From the IMG/VR virus record IMGVR_UViG_3300028826_000074: DNA of 64,000 nt, one strand, 5' to 3'. The position numbers and the translations under genes are program-made. The notes beneath the pieces were generated by a model, which was not told where the DNA came from, did not search any database, and saw nothing but the letters and a program-made list of their open reading frames with translations. The DNA comes from a virus. Position 1 is the first letter of the stretch, and each line of letters begins with the position of its first letter. Positions 3,704-58,154 of the stretch are shown piece after piece.

Positions 3704-4761
3704 TTGTTAAGTTCCTTGTGCAATTTCTTGAGATCGTCTTTCGTTGGGGGCTTGCCGTCGTTGACTTCCGTCACCCAGACGCGCTTGATCCACGCCTGGT
3801 CTTCCTTCGAGAATGTTTCCATCGTGATCTCGTCCTTCGATGGAGGTCTCTTTTCGGAGACGACCTTCTCTTTGGGAGTGTCGCCCTCATCCCCGCCTTC
3901 GGCCTCGGCGAGCATGCGCTTCTCGTACTCCACGCCTAGGGCCTGGTAGTAAGCGGAGGTGCGCAGGTTGAGCGACAGCTTGGACTTCGCCTCCTTCACC
4001 TTGGGATCCGACTCCTCACTGCCGTCGTCGAACGCGGCCGCGCCGAACCCGACGAGGATGTCGACCATGCGCGGGGTGAAAGCCTTAACGACCTCCTCGT
4101 CGAGCTTCCCTCCCTTGATCAGCTCCTGCGTGAATTCCTCCACGATCTGGGGCTTTCTGGCCTGGAGCTGCTGGGTGAGCTCTTGCGTGCGACGCTCAGC
4201 CTCCTGCTGCGTGCGCTCACGATTGGAGAACTCGGTGGCGAGCTGGATCGCGCGGCTCTCGGCCCACTGTAGGCCGGCATCGGACAGGACCTTCCCGCCT
4301 TCGCCGTCGTCCTCGACGAACTCCTCATAGTCCCACGCCTCCGCGAAGGCCTCGTCCTTGAACGCCGGCAGCTTAGGTGGGGACTTCTTGCCCTCCGTGA
4401 CCGCGGTAGTCTGGGCCGGCTTTTCGTCAATCAGGCCGTGCTTCTTGGCGAGCTCCGCGACCTGCTCTTTGGTGAGCTCGGCGGGAGTTTCTTTGACTTC
4501 CTCTTTGGGTTTCTCGCCTACCTTTTCCTTAGACTCGCCCTCTAACTCGTCATCATCGTCGTCATCATCGTCTTCGGCCACCGCTAACTTGGCTAGCTCG
4601 GCCTTCTCGGCATCGATCTCATCGACGTCTACCGTCTCGGCCAAGTGTGGCCCCTGCGCTTGAACAACTGCGGCCCCGCCGCCACCGCCCTCGCCCTCAT
4701 CTGGGGACGATAGGAACCCTGGTAGCGGAGTCCTTAAGGTTCGCTGTAGATATGTCATCAC
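3700..4761 (-). CDS. Probable scaffolding protein
   Basis: 353 aa, very acidic and coiled-coil rich (EDDDDDDDDELE), between portal and capsid. Confidence 0.6.
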   Translation of the reverse strand: MMTYLQRTLRTPLPGFLSSPDEGEGGGGGAAVVQAQGPHLAETVDVDEIDAEKAELAKLAVAEDDDDDDDDELEGESKEKVGEKPKEEVKETPAELTKEQVAELAKKHGLIDEKPAQTTAVTEGKKSPPKLPAFKDEAFAEAWDYEEFVEDDGEGGKVLSDAGLQWAESRAIQLATEFSNRERTQQEAERRTQELTQQLQARKPQIVEEFTQELIKGGKLDEEVVKAFTPRMVDILVGFGAAAFDDGSEESDPKVKEAKSKLSLNLRTSAYYQALGVEYEKRMLAEAEGGDEGDTPKEKVVSEKRPPSKDEITMETFSKEDQAWIKRVWVTEVNDGKPPTKDDLKKLHKELNK

Positions 4762-4900
4762 AGCAACTATACACCGATTCCGCTAGCGGATGGATGTGGT
4801 TGCGGTGAACGACTCCTCGAGCTCAACGCCCTTGGATGACCCAATCAGCTCGTGGATAAACTCGGCCACCGCCGCCGCAGCGATGGCCTTGACTTGAGGA

Positions 4901-6802
4901 TTAGACGCCGACTGGCGCCCCGATTGGGGGTCCTGCTCCAAGGAGGGCTGCGAGCATAGGATCAATGGCAGATCCTCCAAGAGCCGCTGCCGGTGCCGGC
5001 GCAGCCAGTCCCGGAGGAATAGGCATCGCCCCTCCTCCGCCGAGCATTCCCAAAAGTTCAGGGGGGATTCCTCCGAGGAGGGCGTCTGGCCCTCCAACGA
5101 ACTCGGGATTAGGCTGCTCTGCCGGTGCGGGGGTAGCGATGTTGGTTGTGTCGACAATGATGTTCTCCATGGACACAGGCATGTCCAAATTGTTCTGGAA
5201 GAACTTTAGCAGACCTACCTTGGAAATAGCGATGCCCTGGTTCACGACGCCAACGGTGCCGGCCTGGATGTCCTCCAGCCACGGGATCCCGAGCGTTGTG
5301 ATGATCTCCATGAAGAGCTCGATTTTCTTCTGAATGAGTTCTGGGTTGTTGTTGGCGCCCTGCCCGTTCGGGCCGATCTTATAGCGCAGCTTCCAGTCTT
5401 TGGCGCTCGTCGTTTTAAGCCGATCGCCGTGGAACCGCTTGAACGACTTGAAGTTTCTGGCGATCAGGATCTGCATGAACTGGATCGCGCGGATCTCCTC
5501 ATCGAAGAAGTTGTGGCGCTTCTCCTCGCCCTCGTCCGCCGTACCCTGGAGCGCCCCGCCGGTGGCGGTCGCGCTTTGGCTGGCCTCCGGTAGCTGCCCG
5601 GCGGCCACATCAGAGAACCCGGTCACGCCTTCGGCGTAGGTTTTAGCGTCGTTCGCGAGCCCCGCAAGGTCCTTATCGGACGGTGTGGTGGTCTGCACGA
5701 CCGTGAACTTGGGGTCGCCCCGGAACATCATCATGTCGCCCATTCCGGCCGCTTGCTGGGTCATTTCGCCCGTGTAGCCTGCGACGAGGATGGTGCGCTT
5801 AAACGCCGCGACGGCCGACATCAGGCGAGTGAACTGCGCGTCGTTGAGCTCCGCCACCATCGGAATGATGGAGCTGGCGAGGCTGTGCGTTGGCCAGAAG
5901 TCTAGCGGGTCGTACTCGAAGCCTGGCGCGAAGTATTCCGGCATCGGTAGGTCGTATTCCGTGAGGTAGAGCATGCACCGCTGGTCCAGGTGCATCGTGA
6001 ATCGCCACGCCTTCAGCGGCTTCGACTTGTCCATGCCCGTTGGCAGGCGAGCGATGCCGGTGTAGAGATTAGGCTCAAAATTGTCTTCTGATACTCCGTC
6101 CGTGTCTTGGTCGTGAACGGGCGCGAATGGCGCGATATCCTCGCTGAAGTATTCGCCGCGCGCGCGCATCTCCTCAATCTCGAACATCGGGCGATTGGTG
6201 CGGTGCCAGATGCAGCGAGCCTCACTGAGGTCTCGGGCTTTGAGGGTGAACATCCCAAAGTCTTCCGCCAGGATGTACTCCTTGGTCGGCCCGGCGAACT
6301 CGATGTCCCCGTCCTTGACCTCCGCAACGTTGCGCCACCCCTCTCCACTCAGGCGCTCCTCCCACACGATGCGGTACGGGGATCTTGCGCTAATGGCCGC
6401 AATTCTGGCCGACTCGCGGAGCTTGACCTTGTATTTGTCGGCCTCCAGCGCGATCTGGGTGTCTCTCTCTCGAGCTTCCCGGAGGTCGGGATCGCCATCA
6501 CCAGAGAACACGTAGTACGGGTCCATGCCGTTCATCGCGCTGACGACGAGCCTCGAAACACCTTTAACCTGCTTCCGCAACAGAGGGTAGTTCTTCGGCT
6601 CGGCGTCTTTAACGATGACTAGGTTCGATGGGATCTTCTTGTCGTCGAAAACGTCCTGCGCGAACTGATAGCGCTCGAATTTCTCGCGCCGGGATGGGTC
6701 GTTATTGTAGGCGTCGATCATCAGGGCGATGGTGTCGGCCGCTTCTTTCAGCGAGTCTATATCCCACCCTTGCGGGATCTTCGCTGACTTGTCGCGCTTC
6801 AT
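4901..6802 (-). CDS. Phage A portal protein
   Basis: About 633 aa with a Pro/Gly-rich tail; lies between terL/GroES genes and the scaffold; ATG at 6802 preferred as start. Confidence 0.7.
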   Translation of the reverse strand: MKRDKSAKIPQGWDIDSLKEAADTIALMIDAYNNDPSRREKFERYQFAQDVFDDKKIPSNLVIVKDAEPKNYPLLRKQVKGVSRLVVSAMNGMDPYYVFSGDGDPDLREARERDTQIALEADKYKVKLRESARIAAISARSPYRIVWEERLSGEGWRNVAEVKDGDIEFAGPTKEYILAEDFGMFTLKARDLSEARCIWHRTNRPMFEIEEMRARGEYFSEDIAPFAPVHDQDTDGVSEDNFEPNLYTGIARLPTGMDKSKPLKAWRFTMHLDQRCMLYLTEYDLPMPEYFAPGFEYDPLDFWPTHSLASSIIPMVAELNDAQFTRLMSAVAAFKRTILVAGYTGEMTQQAAGMGDMMMFRGDPKFTVVQTTTPSDKDLAGLANDAKTYAEGVTGFSDVAAGQLPEASQSATATGGALQGTADEGEEKRHNFFDEEIRAIQFMQILIARNFKSFKRFHGDRLKTTSAKDWKLRYKIGPNGQGANNNPELIQKKIELFMEIITTLGIPWLEDIQAGTVGVVNQGIAISKVGLLKFFQNNLDMPVSMENIIVDTTNIATPAPAEQPNPEFVGGPDALLGGIPPELLGMLGGGGAMPIPPGLAAPAPAAALGGSAIDPMLAALLGAGPPIGAPVGV

Positions 6803-6806
6803 GCCC

Positions 6807-7715
6807 CTATGATACGTCAACGGTCGACAAGCTAGCCAGAACCCTGCGGAATCCTTGGCTGTCGACCTCCCTCACGAACACCGCGTGCTTGGCCTGCCAC
6901 TCACAGTAGCGAGACACAAACCACTTCGTATTGTCGGGCCTGGGCTCGGTACGATCGCGGTGCAGAACCACCGTGTCTCCATCCTCGAACGATGATTCTG
7001 GGCCAGCCTTCGCCACAATCCCGGCGTTCACTTTGAAGAGCTTCTTGGCCGTCTCGATTGGCGAGCGGTAGTAAAAGATCCCTATAATCATCCAGTTGGA
7101 GATCAGATCCCACTCCATCGTATTCCGGTTGAGTTTGAGCGGAGTCACGTCCTGCCACGGGTCCTCTTTCCCGACGACGCCCACATCCATCACACCAAAG
7201 AGCGAGCGGATCCTGCGCGCGGCGTACGGGGCGACAATTACCCTGTCACCGATCTCGAGATCGACATCCTCCCCCACTTTCACAACGGTGTAGGCGTCCG
7301 CTCGCTGCTCTAGGGCAGCGCCGGCCTGGTACGGTTTGCGCATCTCCTTCCACGTGTCGTGAGCGGCCATGGCGGCCTCCGCAAGCATGTGGGCTCGGCG
7401 CTTCGCGTCGAACGATTTGTCGTCGTTCCGGTAGATCTGGATCGCCTCGAGAGCTTCTCTCTGGAGGTCGTCCCAGCGCTTCTCGGCGGCGTCGTACTCC
7501 ATCGCGTACTTGTCGTCCCACCCGTTGCCCATGGACCTCAGGTGGATGCTGCCTGCGACTTCACCGTCCGCTCCGAGAACCGGCATCGTCTCGCGAGGCG
7601 GGTCCATGACGACCCAGTATTCGCCCGGGAGCGGTTTGATGTTCCTGAACGGAGCGGGGTCGACTACCGGGTGCTCCGACGGGAAGTTGAGTATGTTCTC
7701 GCCTGGTCTAAGCAT
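6807..7715 (-). CDS. Protein with two GroES-like domains
   Basis: IKPLPGEYWVVMD...GSIHL...TVVKVGEDVDLEIGDRVIVAPY and a second AGIVAKAGPESSFEDGDTVVL resemble GroES strands. Confidence 0.5.
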   Translation of the reverse strand: MLRPGENILNFPSEHPVVDPAPFRNIKPLPGEYWVVMDPPRETMPVLGADGEVAGSIHLRSMGNGWDDKYAMEYDAAEKRWDDLQREALEAIQIYRNDDKSFDAKRRAHMLAEAAMAAHDTWKEMRKPYQAGAALEQRADAYTVVKVGEDVDLEIGDRVIVAPYAARRIRSLFGVMDVGVVGKEDPWQDVTPLKLNRNTMEWDLISNWMIIGIFYYRSPIETAKKLFKVNAGIVAKAGPESSFEDGDTVVLHRDRTEPRPDNTKWFVSRYCEWQAKHAVFVREVDSQGFRRVLASLSTVDVS

Positions 7716-8260: not shown

Positions 8261-10066
8261 TCAAGTCTTGATCTCTTGTCGAGACCCGAACAGCACCTCG
8301 TTCCTCGCGGCGATCGCGGCCGACACCGTGCGCCTGGCGCCCATGTCCACGGGAGCTTCCTCTCGCGGTGGGCGCAATTTACGCAGGTCGCGCTTCTCTT
8401 CTTCCTCGCCATCGCCTCTTGCGGAGATGACCCTCACTATGCCGGACGCGAACGCAATCCCGACCGCCAGGTACCTCAGGCAGTCCGCGCGGTGCCACTT
8501 AGACTTGCGGTGGATCTTTGTGTCGTCGGCCTCACCGTCGTCGCCGATCTCGTAGCTGTAGTTGTCCAGCTCGTAGATGACCTGAGCAAGGTCCTTGCTC
8601 ACCACAATTTCCTCGTCCTTGAGCATCCCGTACAGCACGTCGATTCCTTCCATGACCCCGCTCACCGGGGGTTGCAAGATCGGATAGCCGTTGTTTGTGT
8701 AGAGCTCCCTCGAGTCGTCTTCGGTGGTGGGGTTTCCGCCCCAAGCGAGCGGGATCGTGGGCGCCCACAGCCCGCTCTCCTCGTCGATCGCGCGCCCACA
8801 TCGCCACTTGTTGGGATCTCGCCGGTACAACTCGTCGAGCGGGTACGACGGGTCCTCCCCGTAGAAGTAAGACGCTATGTGCTCGCTCGCGGTGCGGTTT
8901 CCGTTGTGGTAGCTGGAATACACGATCCACTGGGCTTTCCCGGACTTGCTGGTGCGCGTTGGGTGGCGCACCGCCCACACCCCGGCGTTGTTGAGTTTGC
9001 CGAAGTCGTGCCCCGCCGCGCGCGGCCAATCGGGCTCGATGAGGGGGCGATCGATGACGGCGTAGAGATCGTAGATGACGCCCGCGGGCTTGGTGTAGCG
9101 GCCCTCGTACATCATCACCCATCGCCACTCAGGCATGTGCTCCTTATCGGCGAAACACTTGTCCTTCGAGTTGCGAGGGTTGGCCCACGTGGGGAAGCTG
9201 ACGAGCTCGTAGCCGTCGTCGCCCTTAAGTGCGCGGTCATAAACCTTGGTCTTGAACCAGTTCCACTCGTACGGGGTGGTGCCGAACATCCGGCGCCCAA
9301 ACACCGCGTCCGGCCCCTCCCTATCGTAGTATCTCTTGATCCACCACCCGAAGCATTTGAGTCTTGTTTCGTCCTCTTCGATCCATTCCTTCATCTTCAG
9401 GAAGGTGGTGGAGCGCGCCACTGTGAGACGACGATCGAACGCCTCCAGGGAGGCTTCCTTGTTCTCTTTCTGGCCCGCTTCATCCCACGTGCCTGAGCAC
9501 GCAGTCACGGACTCCAAGTTGCTTGAGTCGCTGGCGTACGCGAACTTGACGAGCACCTCGATGCCGGTCCACCCGAAGAGCTTCTTGAGCCCTTCCTTGG
9601 AGAATTTGAACGATGGCTTATTGCCCCCGACGTACTTGCCGAGGCCGTGTTTGCCCTCGAACACGCGCCGGAACGCCGGGATGGCTTGGTCCTGGAGCAG
9701 GGTGAGTGTTGGGCCGCAGAAAATGTGGTTGCCAAACCCCATCCACGCAATGAACGGGGCGCAGCGCTGGAGCTCCATGAGCGTCCAGTGGGCCTCCGCT
9801 TCCGTCTTACCGCTCTGGTGGCCGGCGCACGCGACGATGTCCTTTGCGTGAGACAGGAACGCGACTTGCTGGGGGCCATGGAACCAGTCCGGCGGTTGCG
9901 AAGTGTCGATCTCGGGGTCGCTCCACTCACTGGACTGCGACTTGATGAGTTGCTCGGCGTACTCGCGCTTCGCTTCCTCTTCCCTTTCTAAAGCTCGCTG
10001 GGCCTTAATCTCCCTGGCTAGGCGCACCAACGTTGCCGTTGACGTCCCCACTCTTAATGATGGCAT
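8261..10066 (-). CDS. terL: Phage A terminase large subunit
   Basis: Walker A AGHQSGKT, Walker B WDEAG, TTPY coupling motif, nuclease acidic motifs GHDFG and HRADCLRY. Confidence 0.9.
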   Translation of the reverse strand: MPSLRVGTSTATLVRLAREIKAQRALEREEEAKREYAEQLIKSQSSEWSDPEIDTSQPPDWFHGPQQVAFLSHAKDIVACAGHQSGKTEAEAHWTLMELQRCAPFIAWMGFGNHIFCGPTLTLLQDQAIPAFRRVFEGKHGLGKYVGGNKPSFKFSKEGLKKLFGWTGIEVLVKFAYASDSSNLESVTACSGTWDEAGQKENKEASLEAFDRRLTVARSTTFLKMKEWIEEDETRLKCFGWWIKRYYDREGPDAVFGRRMFGTTPYEWNWFKTKVYDRALKGDDGYELVSFPTWANPRNSKDKCFADKEHMPEWRWVMMYEGRYTKPAGVIYDLYAVIDRPLIEPDWPRAAGHDFGKLNNAGVWAVRHPTRTSKSGKAQWIVYSSYHNGNRTASEHIASYFYGEDPSYPLDELYRRDPNKWRCGRAIDEESGLWAPTIPLAWGGNPTTEDDSRELYTNNGYPILQPPVSGVMEGIDVLYGMLKDEEIVVSKDLAQVIYELDNYSYEIGDDGEADDTKIHRKSKWHRADCLRYLAVGIAFASGIVRVISARGDGEEEEKRDLRKLRPPREEAPVDMGARRTVSAAIAARNEVLFGSRQEIKT

Positions 10067-10607
10067 CGAGCTCCTCGTCGGTCAGCTTCTCGAGCTGTCG
10101 TTTAATCTTGATGGTGTCGCCGTACTTCTCTGGCATCGCGCCCTTGAGCATGAACGTCATGAGTGAGTCGGACCCGGCGATCGCGCGCGCTCTGGCGGCC
10201 GCCTCCAGGTCGTCGTTGGCCATGACCTGCGCCTTGTTAAACTCAGCCTCATAGACCTCATTGCGCATCCACTCCCAGTGGCTCTTGGGGCTCAGCTTCA
10301 TCGCCTTGCAGCACTTCTTGATGCTGGAGAGCTCCGCGTAAAGGGTCAGAAACCGCCGCTGGCGGGCGTTGAGACTCTGGTCCCAGTCCTCGTCCTTCAT
10401 GGCTACTGAGACAGTGTCGGGATCCTCTAGTTTGGACGCCTCTACTTGGCGGGCATTCTTGGATGCCTTGCGCGGCTTAAGCTGGTTGAATGGCTCGTTT
10501 GCGTCGGCAACTGGGCTCGACAGGTCGATGATGATCTCCCCGTCGCCTTCGGAGCTCTCGACGAGCTCCCTGAAGTTTTCAACCTTATCCCACGGATTGC
10601 GAGCCAT
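10005..10607 (-). CDS. terS: Phage A terminase small subunit
   Basis: HTH (LNARQRRFLTLYAELSSIKKCCKAM), SDSLMTFMLKGAMPEKYGD motif, overlaps the terL start. Confidence 0.75.
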   Translation of the reverse strand: MARNPWDKVENFRELVESSEGDGEIIIDLSSPVADANEPFNQLKPRKASKNARQVEASKLEDPDTVSVAMKDEDWDQSLNARQRRFLTLYAELSSIKKCCKAMKLSPKSHWEWMRNEVYEAEFNKAQVMANDDLEAAARARAIAGSDSLMTFMLKGAMPEKYGDTIKIKRQLEKLTDEELDAIIKSGDVNGNVGAPSQGD

Positions 10608-10613
10608 GCCTGA

Positions 10614-10874
10614 TTATACGTCGCCATCTGAATCTAGGGTGGCTTTAAGCATCCTGTCAGCCCTGAATTTCAGATACGCGGCAAATCCTATCGCCTTCAC
10701 TGGGCCGCACGTCCACAAGGCCATTTTTAATTCTTCATCGGCAAACCGATCGTCTTGATACAGCACAACCGCCACCTCAACCCCGAAGGCTTTCGCTTCG
10801 TCCGCGAGAGCAAAGGCTCTGTTATAAAAATCCTCAATTGAATTAGGCTCAGGAGCCTGCTCGTCATTTGCCAT
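10614..10874 (-). CDS. Hypothetical protein
   Basis: 86 aa ORF in the late operon with a -10-like TAGCCT 6 nt upstream. Confidence 0.55.
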   Translation of the reverse strand: MANDEQAPEPNSIEDFYNRAFALADEAKAFGVEVAVVLYQDDRFADEELKMALWTCGPVKAIGFAAYLKFRADRMLKATLDSDGDV

Positions 10875-10897: not shown

Positions 10898-11179
10898 CTA
10901 GATCGCGATACCGAAGACGCACCCACTAAGGCGCCGGTCGCGCAATCTGGCGAGGACCTCGTGACCCTCTAGTACCCACTCGGCGAGATCTTCAGGCTCC
11001 GCGGTGCGCATCGCTTCACAGATGTGATAGAGCTGCGCCTCATCGTCGCCGTGCGTCTCGTCAAGGTCGTCGCGATGGACTTCCTCGACCTTCTTCTCTC
11101 CCTCGGTGGTGGCCGAGTTCCGGGCGGCGTAGGCTTTCGTCACCCACTGCCCGGTCACGGACGATCGATAGACTTTCAT
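10898..11179 (-). CDS. Hypothetical protein
   Basis: 93 aa, ATGA-coupled to the upstream gene. Confidence 0.55.
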   Translation of the reverse strand: MKVYRSSVTGQWVTKAYAARNSATTEGEKKVEEVHRDDLDETHGDDEAQLYHICEAMRTAEPEDLAEWVLEGHEVLARLRDRRLSGCVFGIAI

Positions 11180-11613
11180 TTCACGTTGAAGGCCACGCTG
11201 AGCCCCGCGCTCACCGCCCAGGAGGACGGAAGACCCTGCGTGATAATGGGTCCGGCAGATAAGTGTAGTTTTGCTTCTCGGGCAAGTTGATATCTAATTC
11301 CGACCAGCAACGCGCTAACGGGGGCCACACTTTTCAATGTGAATCCCGCGAACAGGTCGACGTCGGCCGACAGCTTGTCGCTGCCGAACAGCTTCGTGAG
11401 CCGACCGAGAATGACGGTGGACCCGGTGGAGGTGCGATCCGCCACATCGCCACCCAGTCGGTAAACCGCGGTCAGGTTCCAGAGCACGGGGTCCTGGTTA
11501 GTGACCTGCGGGGCCTCGACGTGCAATTCTCGAAAGGTGCCGGGGGTCGTTTGCGCCGCCGCCACAGTGAACAGGGCGGACACCGCCGCCAAAATCAGAA
11601 AGATTCGCTTCAT
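11176..11613 (-). CDS. Signal-peptide, beta-strand-rich outer-membrane-like protein in lysis cassette
   Basis: MKRIFLILAAVSALFTVAAA signal peptide, alternating hydrophobic strands; homologous to 56841..57194. Confidence 0.55.
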   Translation of the reverse strand: MKRIFLILAAVSALFTVAAAQTTPGTFRELHVEAPQVTNQDPVLWNLTAVYRLGGDVADRTSTGSTVILGRLTKLFGSDKLSADVDLFAGFTLKSVAPVSALLVGIRYQLAREAKLHLSAGPIITQGLPSSWAVSAGLSVAFNVK

Positions 11614-11615
11614 CC

Positions 11616-11816
11616 TTACTCCTTCAAGGCGCGTTTGGCCTTGATCCTGTAGATCATAGCATCGATTTGCTGCGCCGCAAAGGCCCCAATGGCGGCCATG
11701 AGCGCCGGGCTCAGGTTGTATTTGCGCAGCCACGGAGTCTCCACCATGAGCCCGCCGATGATGGCGCCGAGCGTTACAGTGCGCCCAGCGATTTCTTTGT
11801 CGAATTTTGGTGTCAT
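11616..11816 (-). CDS. Putative holin (2 TM)
   Basis: 66 aa, two hydrophobic segments, basic C-terminus, in the lysis cassette. Confidence 0.5.
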   Translation of the reverse strand: MTPKFDKEIAGRTVTLGAIIGGLMVETPWLRKYNLSPALMAAIGAFAAQQIDAMIYRIKAKRALKE

Positions 11817-12121
11817 TTCGCCCTCAATAGTGATTTCACGTCCGACTTGATCTCCGCAATGTCGGACTGGAGCTGGTTTGTTGAGCTCTGCAACCTGATA
11901 ATCGTTTCGTGGTCGTCTTTGGCGGTTCCGGCGGTGGCCATCGCCTCCGTGTTGCGCGTGTCGATCTCCTTGCGGATCTGGTTCACGTTCATTTGCAGTG
12001 CGGTAATCCACGTGCCTAACAGGAACGACCCCACGACGAGCCACTTGATCCACGGGATCAGTTTAACGAGGGACTCGAGTTGCGACGCGATGTCGTCTTG
12101 GACTTTTGGTTGGTTGATCAT
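11813..12121 (-). CDS. Single-TM coiled-coil protein (holin/antiholin-like)
   Basis: TM WIKWLVVGSFLLGTWITAL followed by coiled coil; next to the endolysin. Confidence 0.5.
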   Translation of the reverse strand: MINQPKVQDDIASQLESLVKLIPWIKWLVVGSFLLGTWITALQMNVNQIRKEIDTRNTEAMATAGTAKDDHETIIRLQSSTNQLQSDIAEIKSDVKSLLRAK

Positions 12122-12153
12122 GGCTCTAAAACGGTTACGTTCTAATGATACGG

Positions 12154-12636
12154 TCAGGACCAGAAGTTGAGCTTGACTCGGTTCGCGAGAACCAGAATTG
12201 GATAACCCTTAGGGTCCGTCTTGCGCCCGGGACTGATCGCCCAGTGAGTCGTGAGCCACTTGATCGACGGGATCGCGTGCTTGAGCTCGAGTACCAGTGC
12301 CGCCAGGGCCTCGCGCTGATCGTGTGGATACGGATCCGCTCCGTCGTTCATGTTGACGAGGCTGATTCCGATCGAGTAGCTGTTGACGCCCTTACCCTGC
12401 GGCCCGTCACTGACGCCGGCGTGCCAAGCGACCCGGCCGGTGTCTACGCACTTGGTGACCTGCCCGTCCTTCTCGATGATGTAGTGGTAACTCAGCCCCC
12501 GATCGCGCAGGGTATTGATCGCTCCGGCGAGCCCGCGGCCGGCGGTGGCGTGCACCACGATAGTAGAGATCGGCTTGGTCCGTTTGCCGGACATGAGCCT
12601 GTTCTTGAGTTCGATTATCTTGGATTTGAGTCCCAT
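12154..12636 (-). CDS. Endolysin, N-acetylmuramoyl-L-alanine amidase (Amidase_2 type)
   Basis: IVVHATAG, SYHYIIEKDG, AWHAG, SIGISL, THWAISPGRKTDP zinc-amidase motifs. Confidence 0.9.
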   Translation of the reverse strand: MGLKSKIIELKNRLMSGKRTKPISTIVVHATAGRGLAGAINTLRDRGLSYHYIIEKDGQVTKCVDTGRVAWHAGVSDGPQGKGVNSYSIGISLVNMNDGADPYPHDQREALAALVLELKHAIPSIKWLTTHWAISPGRKTDPKGYPILVLANRVKLNFWS

Positions 12637-12637
12637 C

Positions 12638-13216
12638 TCAGACCTCCAGGCCCGCCGCGTACAGTCCCAGCATGGCCATCTCCCGTGTCTTTACCACAAT
12701 TCTTCGGCTCCGCTGCGCAGACACTCCCAATTTTCTCTTCACGTCGATCTGCTGCCCGTCGTCAGCGAGGATGTGGAACGCGACCTTCTGCTCCTCCGTC
12801 ATGGCGCGCGTGGCGTGCTTGATCATGTCCTCCGCGGCGAGGTGCTGGGTTTCGTCCGCGGGATCCTCAAAGAGGTCGATCATCTCGGGCGTCATGGGCA
12901 CCATTTCGGGTCTGGTGGTGCCGGCCTTTCGGGTGGCCTTGCGGGTGGCCAGCTCGCGCATGCCGTCCTTCACGGTGTTTGAGAGAATGCTCAGCACGTA
13001 CGTCGAGAACGCGAACCCCTTACTGACGTCGTAGCGCTGGATCGCCTTCGCCATTGCCAGCCCCATGTTTGACTGGGCTTCGTCCAAATCGATCGCGCCG
13101 TTGGACCTCCGGTGCAGCTCCCACGCGTACTTCATGACGGCCTGGAAGTAGCGCTTTGCGATGCGGTCCCTGGCCCACTCATCTCCAAGTTTAGCCATGG
13201 CTAACAATTGCTCCAT
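12638..13216 (-). CDS. Phage-encoded sigma70-family sigma factor
   Basis: Region 2 (LAMAKAIQRYDVSKGFAFSTYV) and region 4 HTH (QIDVKRKLGVSAQRSRRI). Confidence 0.8.
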   Translation of the reverse strand: MEQLLAMAKLGDEWARDRIAKRYFQAVMKYAWELHRRSNGAIDLDEAQSNMGLAMAKAIQRYDVSKGFAFSTYVLSILSNTVKDGMRELATRKATRKAGTTRPEMVPMTPEMIDLFEDPADETQHLAAEDMIKHATRAMTEEQKVAFHILADDGQQIDVKRKLGVSAQRSRRIVVKTREMAMLGLYAAGLEV

Positions 13217-56436: not shown

Positions 56437-56841
56437 CTAACCGCCCGCGCATCCGCCATTCACCGCAAAGACGGTCAGTTCGAATCCTTCCACCTGACGC
56501 CATCCGGAATCACGGAAACGCCTAGCCAGCTTGACGACGTTCGTGACGTACTCGTCCTCGAACTTCTCGATCTTGGCCGGATCTATGTTCGGCTCCCAGG
56601 TGACCTTGCGGGGATTGTCGATCGCGTATTCGGCTGATACGATGAGGCCGGTCTCGGCATCATGCGGCTGCACCTTGTCCCAGTTGGCTTTTGCTTTGGC
56701 GATTAGTCGTTCTCGTTGGCTCATAAACCTACCCTTAGCCTCTTCGGCTCGCATGCGCTCATCCATCTTCTTGGAGCGGATCATCTCGAAGATCAGGATC
56801 GACATCACAACTGCAATGCCGATCCAGGTCGCGGCGTCCAT
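56437..56841 (-). CDS. Membrane-anchored hypothetical protein
   Basis: N-terminal TM WIGIAVVMSILIF. Confidence 0.55.
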   Translation of the reverse strand: MDAATWIGIAVVMSILIFEMIRSKKMDERMRAEEAKGRFMSQRERLIAKAKANWDKVQPHDAETGLIVSAEYAIDNPRKVTWEPNIDPAKIEKFEDEYVTNVVKLARRFRDSGWRQVEGFELTVFAVNGGCAGG

Positions 56842-57194
56842 CAGAACCGATATGTCAGGCCAAGCAAGAGCCCGGCGCCGGTTGGCTTGTTCTGGGTCGC
56901 AGAGATTGCGATGCCAAACTTGAAGTCTGCGTTCCTTGCTACTGGGAACGTCTTACCGATGGCTATACCGCCTGTTATGTTGGACTGTAGGTCTGCACCT
57001 GCAAAGCCATCTACCTCTAGGGAGAATTTGAGGCCTAAAGGACGCTCGATGGTTCCGATGTTTCGCAGGACCACTGCCGAACTAGTGTGCGTGCGGAAGT
57101 CCCATACAGCGGCAAGGCTCCATTCGCGGATCTCCTGGGCACTTGAAATGCACGTCATGGCGAGAAGGGAAAGCAGTAAGAGGAATCGTTTCAT
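56841..57194 (-). CDS. Signal-peptide, beta-strand-rich outer-membrane-like protein in lysis cassette
   Basis: Signal peptide MKRFLLLLSLLAMTCISSA; ends in LGLTYRF (C-terminal Phe typical of BAM substrates); homologous to 11176..11613. Confidence 0.6.
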   Translation of the reverse strand: MKRFLLLLSLLAMTCISSAQEIREWSLAAVWDFRTHTSSAVVLRNIGTIERPLGLKFSLEVDGFAGADLQSNITGGIAIGKTFPVARNADFKFGIAISATQNKPTGAGLLLGLTYRF

Positions 57195-57379
57195 AGTTGA
57201 ACTCCTGATTGGCTGACGCCCAGAGCGGCGAGTAGCCCGGTTGCGGTGCCAGCGATCCACCTACGGGATGCCAGCGACCAATTGAATTTGCGGCGTGACT
57301 TCGACCACTTTTGCAGGTCGATCACGAATGCGGTTGCGAAGCCGGTAGCGGCTCCGATCAAAGCGGTGTTTAGATTCAC
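57191..57379 (-). CDS. Putative holin (2 TM)
   Basis: 62 aa, two hydrophobic segments around a basic loop. Confidence 0.5.
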   Translation of the reverse strand: MNLNTALIGAATGFATAFVIDLQKWSKSRRKFNWSLASRRWIAGTATGLLAALGVSQSGVQL

Positions 57380-57654
57380 TTGCGACCTACCGCCTGCTGA
57401 ATCTGCTTGATGCCTTCCTCGACACGAATAACGGCTTCATGCGTGGCCTGGAACTTAGTGATCGCTTCTTTCATGATTGCCTCGTTCCGGGCCGTGGACT
57501 CGGCTTGGGCGCGATCCTCGCGAGCAAGGGCGGCTAGTCTCATCTCGACTCGCACTCCCCACATGACGGCGGCAATGATGTAGCCGATGATGAGCCTGAG
57601 AGCCCAAATGACCTCAGAGTCTGGGATGACGAGTTGAGCAAAGAGGCTGAGCAT
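57376..57654 (-). CDS. Single-TM coiled-coil protein (holin/antiholin-like)
   Basis: TM IWALRLIIGYIIAAVMWGV then coiled coil. Confidence 0.5.
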   Translation of the reverse strand: MLSLFAQLVIPDSEVIWALRLIIGYIIAAVMWGVRVEMRLAALAREDRAQAESTARNEAIMKEAITKFQATHEAVIRVEEGIKQIQQAVGRK

Positions 57655-57689
57655 TGTTTCATGTGGCACCCTTGGTGCAAAACGAGGAT

Positions 57690-58154
57690 CTAGGGGAAAC
57701 TCAAAACAAAAACGCGGCACTTGCGTTGGTAACCTTTTCCAGACCAAGGCCTGGAGCCTGGGCCATGGCCGCCGTACGACTCGTAGGTTCGTCCATTCAA
57801 GATGAAGCCCACATGGCGCCCAACGCCTTTGCCTGGCTGCTGGGGAAGCACGAACATCCGCAGGATGCCGTCCTTGAGCTTCCCGGCCTCTACCGTGGAT
57901 TCCTTAAAGTGGTTTTCGATCAGCCACTCGAGCTGCTTTGCCGAGCCGTCCGGAATAACCTCGCCGCATGCCTTGCTCACGATAAGCCTCGTGTAACCAG
58001 AGCAATCGATCTCCTTCACGTCGGCGAGCTGCACTCCCAAGAAGGGGGCTTTAGCGCCGAGTAGGTACTTGCAGTCCTTCATCTTGCCAGTCAGAACTGG
58101 AATGTCCTGAGGCTCGATCGGAAGCGTTTCGTATGGTAATTCTTTGTTCGGCAT
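57690..58154 (-). CDS. Endolysin, NlpC/P60-like cysteine peptidase
   Basis: YLLGAK..IDCSGY..RHVGF..YES catalytic Cys/His pattern. Confidence 0.75.
   Translation of the reverse strand: MPNKELPYETLPIEPQDIPVLTGKMKDCKYLLGAKAPFLGVQLADVKEIDCSGYTRLIVSKACGEVIPDGSAKQLEWLIENHFKESTVEAGKLKDGILRMFVLPQQPGKGVGRHVGFILNGRTYESYGGHGPGSRPWSGKGYQRKCRVFVLSFP

Follow-up and report, generated by a model that had tools for sequence, protein, structure and literature searches.

How the outer membrane is opened by phages whose lysis cassettes encode no recognisable spanin is the question raised by the locus analyzed here. To our knowledge, the mechanism used by such phages is known in one case only, that of the phiKT disruptin. 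Among 677 phages of double-membraned bacteria, 91 (about one in seven), Bacteroidota phages included, are without a recognisable spanin (Kongari et al. 2018, PMC6139136). The window, i.e. the whole stretch of viral DNA analyzed (64,000 nucleotides), contains the lysis cassettes of two phages, hereafter A and B, in which an exported beta-rich protein stands where spanins are expected. The original prediction regarded this protein as a possible undescribed outer-membrane lysis component or an exclusion factor. With a probability that we put at roughly one half, we propose that it is a minimal outer-membrane barrel through which phages lacking a lipoprotein spanin carry out the outer-membrane step of lysis.

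Two lysis cassettes in the window share an exported beta protein

Both phages had been described as having the gene order endolysin, single-transmembrane (1-TM) coiled-coil protein, small 2-TM protein and signal-peptide beta protein, and this common order was confirmed (Table 1). The cassettes had also been placed shortly before terS, which holds in so far as terS is nearby; it is, however, not adjacent, since the beta gene is followed by two small genes (93 and 86 aa) and then terS and terL in phage A, and by a 134-aa gene, a terS-like gene and terL in phage B. The 93-aa protein gave no family match. As to the endolysins, the amidase of phage A was substantiated by its Pfam match and by PHROG amidase/endolysin families (best 4e-22), the enzyme being without a signal or SAR segment, whereas the NlpC/P60 assignment in phage B proved weak, the match to PF00877 (20.3 bits) lying below the Pfam cut-off of 23. 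The same phage B protein matched a cell wall hydrolase (PDB 7cfl) at E 0.08.

The beta proteins of the two phages align as predicted (BLASTP, 30% identity over 106 residues, E 4e-7), and the quoted blocks were recovered, namely WNLTAVYRL/WSLAAVWDF, LSADVDLFAG/FSLEVDGFAG, LAREAKLHLS/VARNADFKFG and AGLSVAF/LGLTYRF. That neither protein has a lipobox is true of the A copy, for which a lipoprotein reading is excluded by the absence of any Cys among its 145 residues, but needs qualification for the B copy, in which a Cys is present in the context L-A-M-T-C, non-canonical in having Thr at -1. A lenient lipobox scan of all frames revealed no credible lipoprotein spanin candidate in either window cassette.

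The beta gene of phage A starts at an ATG preceded by an AAGGAG ribosome-binding site, the annotated ORF beginning further upstream at a GTG. Translational coupling is apparent within the cassette, where the stop of the coiled-coil gene overlaps the start of the 2-TM gene (ATGA). Because the beta gene has overlapping start/stop codons, resembles its neighbouring genes in GC and GC3, and has neither a promoter nor a terminator next to it on its coding strand, it is not moron-like.

Table 1. Features of the two lysis cassettes, with positions in the window
Feature	Position	Strand	Basis
Phage A Amidase_2 endolysin (N-acetylmuramoyl-L-alanine amidase)	12154-12636	-	Pfam PF01510, E 9.6e-28
Phage A 1-TM coiled-coil protein, 102 aa	11813-12121	-	Sequence and hydropathy
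Phage A 2-TM holin-like protein, 66 aa	11616-11816	-	Hydropathy
Phage A beta protein, exported, 145 aa	11176-11613, stop codon included	-	ORF and start, family search, AlphaFold2
Signal peptide of the A copy, residues 1-20, predicted signal peptidase I site A-A-A/Q	11554-11613	-	Read from sequence
Linker of the A copy, residues 21-42, predicted periplasmic	11488-11553	-	pLDDT 63-77, no secondary structure
Six-stranded beta domain of the A copy, residues 43-142, ends G-L-S-V-A-F (beta-signal-like)	11188-11487	-	AlphaFold2
Phage A soluble 93-aa protein	10898-11179	-	ORF, ATGA overlap with the stop of the beta gene
Phage A terS	10005-10607	-	phrog_4044, 2e-10
Phage B putative endolysin, peptidase-like	57690-58154	-	Pfam PF00877, weak, E 5.6e-4
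Phage B TM coiled-coil protein	57376-57654	-	
Phage B 2-TM protein	57191-57379	-	Family differs from that of the phage A 2-TM protein
Phage B beta protein, paralogue of the A copy, 117 aa, ends Y-R-F	56841-57194	-	BLASTP against the A copy

Metagenomes contain an undescribed family of beta proteins

An exhaustive HMM search of 1.84 billion representatives with a profile built from the A and B copies recovered 66 clusters, all metagenomic, indicating that the similarity of the two copies is not due to chance; the phage B protein was the second-best family match (P0003, 1.9e-32). Such an exhaustive search was required, as word-based protein searches returned near-identical relatives only, or 10 matches with alignment. 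Four long matches (P0024, P0044, P0051 and P0052) were discarded as spurious, being Ig-domain, repeat or unrelated long proteins. The conserved part of the family is confined to the C-terminal ~100 residues.

No match to Pfam was obtained at E up to 0.1 for 62 members, or at E up to 1 for the window copies, and the HMMs of OMP_b-brl (PF13505), OMP_b-brl_2 (PF13568), Ail_Lom, PagL (PF09411) and OmpW matched none of the 62 members. Searches of PHROGs and of NCBIfam (E up to 0.1) were likewise negative, as was tblastn of two members against 50,697 cultured phage records. Pattern scans gave no confirmed IMG/VR loci and nothing in 185,579 species genomes, where no prophage copy was found with the patterns used. 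In line with the prediction, the family is unannotated, and we regard the A copy as a founding member of a phage protein family not described before. The literature on spanins, disruptin, lysis cassettes and beta-barrels yielded no account of a lysis protein that is an outer-membrane barrel.

The beta gene keeps its place in diverse lysis cassettes

All loci of the beta family are phage DNA. In 15 of 16 loci the beta gene lies, codirectionally, at the distal end of the lysis cassette or of its membrane-protein core. This placement is almost the only one seen for the family, in cassettes without a recognisable lipoprotein spanin. Usually it is found just upstream of terS/terL, and at least three endolysin types are represented in these loci (Amidase_2, Peptidase_M15_4 and CHAP/NlpC-like). 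One cassette (L012) also includes a Tad2-like anti-defence gene. Using tblastn against 50,697 phage records, the terL of phage B was ~40% identical to sequences of phages infecting Proteobacteria and cyanobacteria, and that of phage A gave no match; as the relatives of the former infect diderm hosts, no more can be concluded than a diderm host. We take Bacteroidota to be the probable hosts.

The closest neighbour of the beta gene encodes the 2-TM protein, which in phage A combines two hydrophobic segments with a charged C-terminal tail (R-I-K-A-K-R-A-L-K-E) and is encoded in the same cassette as the endolysin. As it gave no family match in Pfam, PHROG or NCBIfam, named holin families included, we refer to it as holin-like rather than as a member of any holin family. 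It is 34% identical (E 3e-6) to the protein in the same position of L014, and the phage B 2-TM protein is 42-47% identical to the same-position proteins of L004 and L008. When further IMG/VR loci were retrieved through the phage B 2-TM gene alone, a beta-family gene was found downstream in four out of four. Pattern scans for the 2-TM protein gave nothing in 185,579 species genomes and, in the metagenome collection, no locus beyond a duplicate. In two lineages, with 34% mutual identity over 184 aa, the 2-TM part, signal peptide and beta domain are fused in one ORF. Apparent fusions in L016 to L018 were rejected as artefacts of stop-to-stop ORFs, the genes lying in different frames.

The coiled-coil protein of phage A has one TM segment (~ residues 18-43) and, behind it, a coiled-coil tail of ~58 aa; counterparts with the same architecture and an H-E-x-x-I-R motif occur in 12 loci besides phage A. 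Its PHROG matches are all weak (holin/antiholin phrog_10340 at 0.0024; Rz-like phrog_89 at 0.022), and on these it may be a holin/antiholin-like or an i-spanin-like partner. By K+R count, the tail would lie in the cytoplasm (C-in) in 9 of 13 proteins and outside (C-out) in 3.

Alternatively, the beta protein might provide the outer-membrane half of a spanin-like bridge of two components, with a barrel in place of the o-spanin lipid anchor, whose linker or periplasmic turn binds the coiled-coil tail, the membranes being fused or torn after wall loss. The Rz-like match and the presence of the coiled-coil protein (75-121 aa) with the beta gene in 13 loci speak for such a bridge, as does a Prosite-type lipobox that is additionally present in 13 of the 66 family members; as the A copy is not among them, the lipobox is optional in the family. 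Moreover, the unstructured, Pro-rich N-terminal extension of 60-70 aa in long members recalls Pro-rich Rz1 (PMC6139136). Nevertheless, we consider a bridge unlikely. Given the short coiled-coil tail and a phage B barrel almost without a periplasmic extension, the pair looks too short to span the periplasm. Furthermore, in the related loci L009 and L014 a Phage_holin_4_1 gene (L009) replaces the TM-coiled-coil, 2-TM and 55-aa genes (L014), the beta gene being present in both; that L009 keeps it without the coiled-coil gene suggests that the beta protein is independent of a tether. It is also the 2-TM gene, not the coiled-coil gene, to which the beta gene is adjacent or fused, and no fusion of a coiled coil to the beta domain was found among 1.84 billion representatives. 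Modelled as a complex, without control runs, residues 44-102 of the coiled-coil protein (its tail; 8-row alignment) and residues 22-145 of the beta protein (its mature form; 62-row alignment) scored 0.00 against a mark of 0.32, which bears on binding in neither direction.

The same genomic position could also be that of an accessory outer-membrane protein, made from the late operon for superinfection exclusion or receptor masking and not for lysis, for example to keep progeny from adsorbing to debris. The stretch between the lysis genes and terS is a known site of accessory genes, which are common there, and this counts against a lysis role; the L012 cassette with its Tad2-like gene is an instance. 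Phages are also known to encode outer-membrane barrels (Ail/Lom/Opacity type), and these are the nearest, albeit weak, viral structure matches. However, the external loops of the predicted barrel are very short (~8, 5 and 2 residues), leaving almost no surface for masking or binding, and the place of the beta gene relative to the 2-TM gene is fixed despite differing endolysins and terminases. Together with the fusions in two lineages, the translational coupling and native composition, and the lack of any prophage cargo copy in 185,579 species genomes (patterns used), these features make an accessory function improbable in our view.

Sequence pattern and predicted fold resemble outer-membrane barrels

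The view of the beta protein as an outer-membrane-type protein was borne out at the level of sequence features, that is, in its signal, its strand faces and its C-terminal beta-signal. An N-terminal Sec signal is present in the A copy and in nearly all 66 members, as judged by inspection and regular expressions; that of the A copy comprises a K-R n-region, a hydrophobic core and small residues at -3 and -1, and Gln is found at +1 in 34 of the 66 members. The linker that follows reaches 60-70 aa and is Pro-rich in long members, and is coil in the long-form model too. The C-terminal consensus of the family, G-L-S-V-R-F, agrees with the C-terminal beta-signal strand that is conserved among outer-membrane proteins (PMC6659671), with a motif G-x-x-V-R-F whose final position is 84% aromatic, and an aromatic residue (F or Y) is the very last one in 45/66 members. 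Atypically for a BAM beta-signal, the A copy continues for three residues (N-V-K) beyond its terminal Phe.

Column statistics of 62 sequences revealed two alternating strand faces. The first is aliphatic (L83, L85, A87, A89, V91; F102, V104, F108; V114 to V124; F132 to F142). The second is Gly-rich (G101, G105, G119, G121, G131, G133, G135, G137 and the invariant G90) and also bears F88, Y117 and a charged cluster of D84, D86, R107 and R141. From this pattern and from the kind of matches described below, we infer that the aliphatic face points outward.

The AlphaFold monomer models suggested as a check show six long strands both in the A copy and in P0012, a member 30% identical to it (strand pLDDT 94-98). 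For the A copy, overall pLDDT is 89.5, with strands at residues 43-52, 61-72, 83-92, 98-109, 114-125 and 128-142 (pLDDT 95-98) and the signal peptide modelled as a helix (residues 3-14). The best structural match of both models is BBn6 (Z 8.7 for the A copy, 9.6 for P0012), superposed with an rmsd of 2.7-2.8 over 81-83 of 90 residues and standing ~3 Z units above the next row; the best natural structures are eight-stranded outer-membrane barrels (Z 4.2-5.7). Similarly, transmembrane barrels are the best PDB and viral matches in Foldseek, the top two PDB rows being TMB2.3 and TMB2.17 (6X9Z), and the look-alikes in the Atlas are PagL and OMP_b-brl clusters (PagL clusters, TM 0.49-0.50). At the sequence level, the family profile matched one PDB entry only, TMB2.3 (6X1K; E 0.0058). 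A type IX secretion C-terminal domain was ruled out, as no NCBIfam match was obtained (E up to 0.1) and the predicted six-strand meander barrel is not an Ig-like 7-strand sandwich.

BBn6 is itself a soluble design, which favours a reading of the beta domain as a soluble, periplasmic six-stranded barrel with an aliphatic core and a glycine/charged surface that, for example, targets the cell wall or wall-to-membrane tethers, or regulates the endolysin. By rough volume estimates either face could fill an n=6, S=8 barrel, and the conserved D84, D86, R107 and R141 could make a binding surface. We nonetheless hold this to be very unlikely, as nine conserved glycine positions would be odd on a solvent-exposed face, charged residues make up only ~15% of the domain and are mostly in turns, and the 45 proteins with an aromatic end carry it in a beta-signal-like motif. 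In addition, the sole sequence-level PDB match is a designed transmembrane barrel, and structural alignments of the A model are closer in identity to outer-membrane proteins (mostly 12-19%) than to soluble barrels (3-6%), the gap being smaller for the P0012 model.

Finally, as in the oligomeric barrel of the original prediction, the six strands might be a protomer, of which two to four chains pair laterally, strand 1 with strand 6 of the next chain, into a pored outer-membrane barrel of 12 to 24 strands. Shared barrels with two to four strands per chain do exist, as in TolC, trimeric autotransporters and secretins, and covariation is blind to whether strands 1 and 6 pair within or between chains. 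The family has the Sec signal, the C-terminal aromatic beta-signal and the alternating faces of outer-membrane proteins but, in the models, six strands where known outer-membrane barrels have 8 to 36 (PMC6659671), so AlphaFold2 may be closing a protomer of a larger barrel. Such an assembly has in our estimate a slim chance only, because both monomer models close confidently and the inward face consists mostly of glycine together with conserved Phe, Tyr, Leu and Val, in keeping with a narrow barrel whose interior is packed and not with a lumen holding water.

A minimal outer-membrane barrel may act in lysis

According to the model that we favour, in which a minimal barrel acts at the outer-membrane step of lysis, the beta protein would be co-made with the endolysin and holin-like proteins from a coupled late operon, exported by Sec and freed of its signal peptide. 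Host BAM would then insert it in the outer membrane as a pore-less, six-stranded minimal barrel, aliphatic on the outside and packed with glycine inside, whose external loops are very short and whose periplasmic turn is conserved. In the mode that appears most likely, it would build up there late in infection and weaken the membrane, via dilution of the LPS/protein lattice or occupation of BAM, and the weakened membrane would fail after the endolysin has removed the cell wall; an inner-membrane tether would not be required. The analysis shows the family, its predicted fold, the outer-membrane-type sequence pattern, the synteny and the lack of spanin candidates; insertion in the outer membrane, the monomeric state, the mode of action and the role in lysis are what we infer, the last from gene context only. 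We know of no precedent for a pore-less mini-barrel breaking an outer membrane, which counts against this model. Beyond the single protein, we suggest tentatively, as a possibility that we would not call probable, a third, undescribed class of phage outer-membrane lysis proteins besides spanins and disruptin. Its members would be pore-less barrels of six strands inserted by BAM, smaller than any other transmembrane beta-barrel in nature, which would accumulate late in infection and cause membrane failure after wall loss.

The beta family provides a concrete, cloneable candidate, which recurs where a spanin would stand and alongside three or more types of endolysin. If the model is true, it would account for how at least a part of the spanin-less phages lyse their Bacteroidota-like hosts. 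With six strands, an outer-membrane barrel would undercut the eight now accepted as the minimum, and would offer a very small natural substrate for studies of BAM insertion and a natural counterpart of designed mini-barrels.

Comparison with known systems

Two-component spanins (lambda Rz/Rz1; T4 PseT.3/PseT.2) share with the beta protein a cassette position after the endolysin, export to the envelope, a small inner-membrane coiled-coil companion and, in long family members, a Pro-rich periplasmic segment as in Rz1. In contrast, the A copy has neither a lipoprotein signal nor a Cys, and its proposed attachment is by beta-barrel and not by lipid; its gene is neither embedded in nor overlapping the coiled-coil gene, from which it is separated by the 2-TM gene; Rz is much longer than the coiled-coil protein; and sequence similarity is absent. 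The unimolecular spanin T1 gp11 is likewise a single exported, beta-rich cassette protein thought to act on the outer membrane. Its N-terminus bears a lipobox and its C-terminus a transmembrane helix that lies in the inner membrane, whereas the A copy lacks a lipobox, ends in a beta strand (F-N-V-K) and has as its only hydrophobic helix the N-terminal signal peptide with its A-x-A/Q cleavage site. Without lipobox or TM helix after signal cleavage, the beta protein would not bridge both membranes. The disruptin phiKT gp28, a cationic antimicrobial-peptide-like protein (bioRxiv 10.1101/515445), is also a non-spanin cassette product of a spanin-less phage, proposed or shown to disrupt the outer membrane. 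The beta protein differs from it in being exported, all-beta and barrel-type, with ~100 residues.

With regard to fold, the beta protein resembles eight-stranded outer-membrane barrels (OmpA TM domain, OmpX/Ail/Lom, OmpW, PagL, NspA) in its Sec signal, up-and-down antiparallel meander, aliphatic and presumably lipid-facing face, strand-end aromatics, C-terminal Phe beta-signal and predicted periplasmic placement of both termini, and is unlike them in having six strands, a glycine-packed interior and external loops of 2-8 residues. With the artificial, eight-stranded TMB2.3 and TMB2.17 it shares an idealised alternation of aliphatic residues with Gly/Tyr, and their weak scores point to similar composition and pattern, not to homology. 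The closest backbone for two family members is that of BBn6 (PDB 9XZT), a de novo closed barrel (n=6, S=8) whose authors describe the fold as rarely if ever seen in nature (PMC12478100). Designed to be soluble, BBn6 has a hydrophobic core and shows only 5-7% identity; compared to it, the polarity of the beta protein appears inverted, with the aliphatic residues outside.

Lysis cassettes of phages A and B

According to the original prediction, phages A and B share the order of their lysis genes, each cassette closing with an exported beta-strand protein (hereafter beta protein). Phage B repeats the phage A order, and the two beta proteins align through the sequence blocks quoted there (30% identity, E 4e-7); the observation is therefore confirmed, small corrections apart. 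The endolysins, described as unrelated, are an amidase in phage A and a different enzyme in phage B, whose assignment to NlpC/P60 is weak (E 5.6e-4, under the Pfam cut-off). The cassette lies near terS as stated, but is not adjacent to it, one or two genes intervening. As to the claimed absence of a lipobox, the A copy is devoid of any cysteine, whereas the B copy carries one in a non-canonical L-A-M-T-C context.

Neighbouring genes of the phage A cassette either overlap by ATGA or lie 2 nt apart, and GC and GC3 of its beta gene are like those of the neighbours. A scan of this cassette region revealed no coding-strand terminator or promoter-like site adjoining the beta gene, the only two promoter-like matches being at chance level.

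Between the phage A cassette and terS, an 86-aa gene without family match has a GC3 of 0.52 versus 0.73-0.83 in all neighbours and is possibly a recent acquisition. In phage B, a 134-aa protein with an N-terminal transmembrane (TM) segment, likewise without family match, is encoded directly 3' of the beta gene (1-nt overlap) and might represent a further envelope component of the cassette. In phage A and in L001 a sigma-70/ECF-like gene adjoins the cassette on the 5' side of the endolysin; in L010 such a gene lies 3' of the beta gene (L numbers denote metagenomic loci compared with the window).

Coordinates of cassette features in the window and in compared loci
Feature	Position	Strand	Remarks
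Phage A sigma-70-like gene	12638-13216	-	adjoins cassette
Phage A Amidase_2 endolysin	12154-12636	-	Pfam E 9.6e-28
Phage A 102-aa protein	11813-12121	-	one TM, coiled-coil tail of ~58 aa
Phage A 66-aa 2-TM protein	11616-11816	-	charged tail
Phage A 145-aa beta protein	11176-11613	-	real start is the ATG downstream of AAGGAG site
Phage A predicted signal peptide	11554-11613		cleavage at A-A-A|Q
Phage A two small soluble genes		-	between beta gene and terS (next two rows)
Phage A T-G-(R/Q)-(W/Y) gene	10898-11179
Phage A 86-aa gene	10614-10874	-
Phage A terS	10005-10607	-	phrog_4044, 2e-10; followed by terL
Phage A promoter-like matches	12641-12614; 10660-10631
Phage B cassette	56841-58154
Phage B beta protein	56841-57194	-
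Phage B predicted signal peptide	57135-57194		cleavage at S-S-A|Q
Phage B L-A-M-T-C	57150-57194
Phage B 134-aa protein	56437-56841	-
L002 fusion ORF	498-1061
L003 fusion ORF	5001-5570
L008 T-G-(R/Q)-(W/Y) gene	5593-5868
L009 Phage_holin_4_1	517-1017
L009 T-G-(R/Q)-(W/Y) gene	1710-1985
L010 sigma-70/ECF-like gene	6484-6996		3' of beta gene
L012 Tad2-like gene	635-1132
L014 coiled-coil, 2-TM and 55-aa genes	4258-4929
L014 T-G-(R/Q)-(W/Y) gene	5639-5818

A beta-protein family with conserved gene context

A profile run exhaustively against 1.84 billion representative proteins (E up to 1e-3) recovered a family of 66 clusters, 13 of them below 1e-10. Four long matches (Ig-domain, repeat or otherwise unrelated proteins) were rejected as spurious; the other members comprise 92-199 aa, with a conserved C-terminal region of ~100 residues and an upstream signal peptide; in about one third of members, a Pro-rich stretch as long as 70 aa separates the two. 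All members stem from metagenome assemblies and none bears a functional name, being called 'hypothetical protein' where named. The A and B copies have no match in Pfam, PHROGs or NCBIfam, none of 62 scanned members matches a Pfam family, and tblastn queries with two members had no match among 50,697 records of cultured phages.

We compared 16 independent loci, all of them phage DNA: the phage A and phage B loci of the window, eleven retrieved via the beta protein (L001-L004, L007-L012, L014) and three via the phage-B-type 2-TM protein (L015, L016, L018). At 12 of the 16, a same-strand endolysin or holin lies within ~2.6 kb upstream of the beta gene, namely Amidase_2 (A, L001, L010, L018), Peptidase_M15_4 (L003, L004), CHAP/NlpC-like (B, L008, L016), an unnamed enzyme family (L009, L014), Phage_holin_4_1 (also L009) or a gene without Pfam match that is M15-like by eye (L015). 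On the short contigs L002, L007 and L012 the membrane-protein core or terS adjoins the beta gene; the remaining locus, L011, holds a weak family member (E 6.8e-4) in a context that is not assignable. The recurrent core runs from the 1-TM coiled-coil protein through the 2-TM protein and sometimes one or two small genes to the beta protein. The 2-TM protein of phage B is 42-47% identical to its L004 and L008 counterparts, that of phage A 34% to its L014 counterpart, and a beta-family gene lay downstream in all four IMG/VR loci retrieved by the 2-TM protein alone. In two lineages (P0030/L002 and P0057/L003; P numbers denote family members), 2-TM segment, signal peptide and beta domain are fused in one ORF (34% identity over 184 aa), which signal-peptidase cleavage would convert into a 3-TM protein and a mature barrel. 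We consider the family and its synteny solid.

In L012, a Tad2-like (anti-Thoeris) gene separates the 2-TM and beta genes of an otherwise typical cassette. Small soluble genes just 3' of the beta gene share a T-G-(R/Q)-(W/Y) motif at several loci.

Predicted fold and outer-membrane features

The AlphaFold2 model of the A copy, based on a 62-sequence alignment, has a pLDDT of 89.5 and comprises six strands of 10-15 residues each (pLDDT 95-98); the long member P0012 (30% identical to A) is predicted with the same six strands and an unstructured N-terminal extension. In an all-against-all structural comparison, the top match of both models was 9XZT, BBn6 (Z 8.7 and 9.6; rmsd 2.7-2.8 Å over 81-83 of its 90 residues), ~3 Z units over the next rows. 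BBn6, a closed barrel designed de novo, has six strands and a shear number of 8; its authors describe the fold as rarely if ever found in nature (PMC12478100). Accordingly, each of the two predicted models is an up-and-down barrel closed by six strands.

Column statistics of the family reveal strict face alternation along the strands. One face is aliphatic (L83, L85, A87, A89, V91; F102, V104, F108; V114 to V124; F132 to F142), with aromatic residues close to the strand ends. The opposite face is dominated by glycine (invariant G90 plus eight more positions) and also carries conserved Phe88 and Tyr117 and a charged cluster (D84, D86, R107, R141) at the barrel end holding both termini. The last strand, G-L-S-V-R-F, is of the type of the OMP beta-signal (PMC6659671), and an aromatic residue forms the exact C-terminal end in 45 of 66 proteins. 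From the sequence pattern and the kind of structural matches, we infer that the aliphatic face points outwards and the glycine face inwards. An oligomeric pore, its barrel built from six-strand protomers, is a rival reading; an interior lined by glycine and filled with Phe and Tyr suits a closed barrel of very small width more than a lumen containing water.

A soluble barrel is a further rival reading. After BBn6, soluble eight-stranded barrels are mixed with outer-membrane proteins such as TtoA, Tsx, OmpW, OprF, AlkL and NspA. Several comparisons favour the outer membrane. When the A model is aligned by structure, its sequence identity is mostly 12-19% to outer-membrane proteins versus 3-6% to soluble barrels, a gap that is smaller for the P0012 model. 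Among all PDB sequences, the family profile matched only TMB2.3, a designed transmembrane barrel (E 0.0058). Foldseek, whose score also takes residue type into account, placed transmembrane barrels, designed as well as natural, at the top of its PDB matches and, weakly, phage 'Opacity/OMP barrel' proteins first in a viral library. Look-alikes in the ESM-Atlas belong to PagL and OMP_b-brl clusters. Fold and membrane location are rated as probable.

A Prosite-type lipobox cysteine occurs 6-9 residues upstream of the A-x-A|Q site in 13 members (P0035, P0069, P0047, P0006, P0005, P0025, P0017, P0048, P0070, P0027, P0040, P0060, P0009), so part of the family may, judging from sequence, be lipidated as well as barrel-anchored.

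Possible hosts

In 34 of the 66 members, both window copies included, the residue after the predicted signal peptidase I cleavage site is Gln. This 'Q-rule' was reported as Bacteroidetes-specific (PMC5837995) and has already been applied in reading phage proteins (PMC10367356); Gln at +1 in both copies hints that phages A and B infect Bacteroidota, despite their 56-61% GC. Kongari et al. 2018 list Bacteroidota phages among those that lack spanins (PMC6139136). The Gln is mostly absent from the long, Pro-rich forms, which may come from phages of other hosts. The patterns applied to species genomes revealed no prophage copy.

Proposed action and comparison with known systems

That the beta protein and a partner form a spanin-like pair is a rival bearing on the membrane proteins of the core. 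In the related phages L009 and L014 (enzyme genes 42% identical, beta genes 53%, downstream genes 57%), a single Phage_holin_4_1 in L009 replaces the coiled-coil, 2-TM and 55-aa genes of L014 and the barrel is retained; the pair of small membrane proteins thus acts like the holin unit. The coiled-coil tail is just ~58 aa long and, by simple positive-inside count, would be cytoplasmic in 9 of 13 such proteins and outside in 3, and the phage B barrel has nearly no periplasmic extension. These observations argue that the barrel needs no inner-membrane tether, and we therefore favour a factor that acts on its own in the outer membrane.

Such a factor would be exported and inserted in the outer membrane throughout late infection, weakening it such that it would fail after wall degradation; as means of weakening, lattice dilution and BAM occupancy are speculative. 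An accessory or exclusion protein is a rival reading, and a role in lysis is in our view a hypothesis with good motivation.

All frames of both window cassettes were scanned leniently for a lipobox, which gave no credible o-spanin or u-spanin. In the literature searched, no lysis protein of the outer membrane is described as being of barrel type. The beta protein sits at the spanin place of the cassette, yet lacks what defines o-spanins and u-spanins, having neither lipobox nor C-terminal TM segment, and it is unlike the peptide-type disruptin. It shares the hallmarks of outer-membrane barrels, strand number excepted, natural ones being known only with 8 to 36 strands (PMC6659671), and it matches none of the known barrel families.
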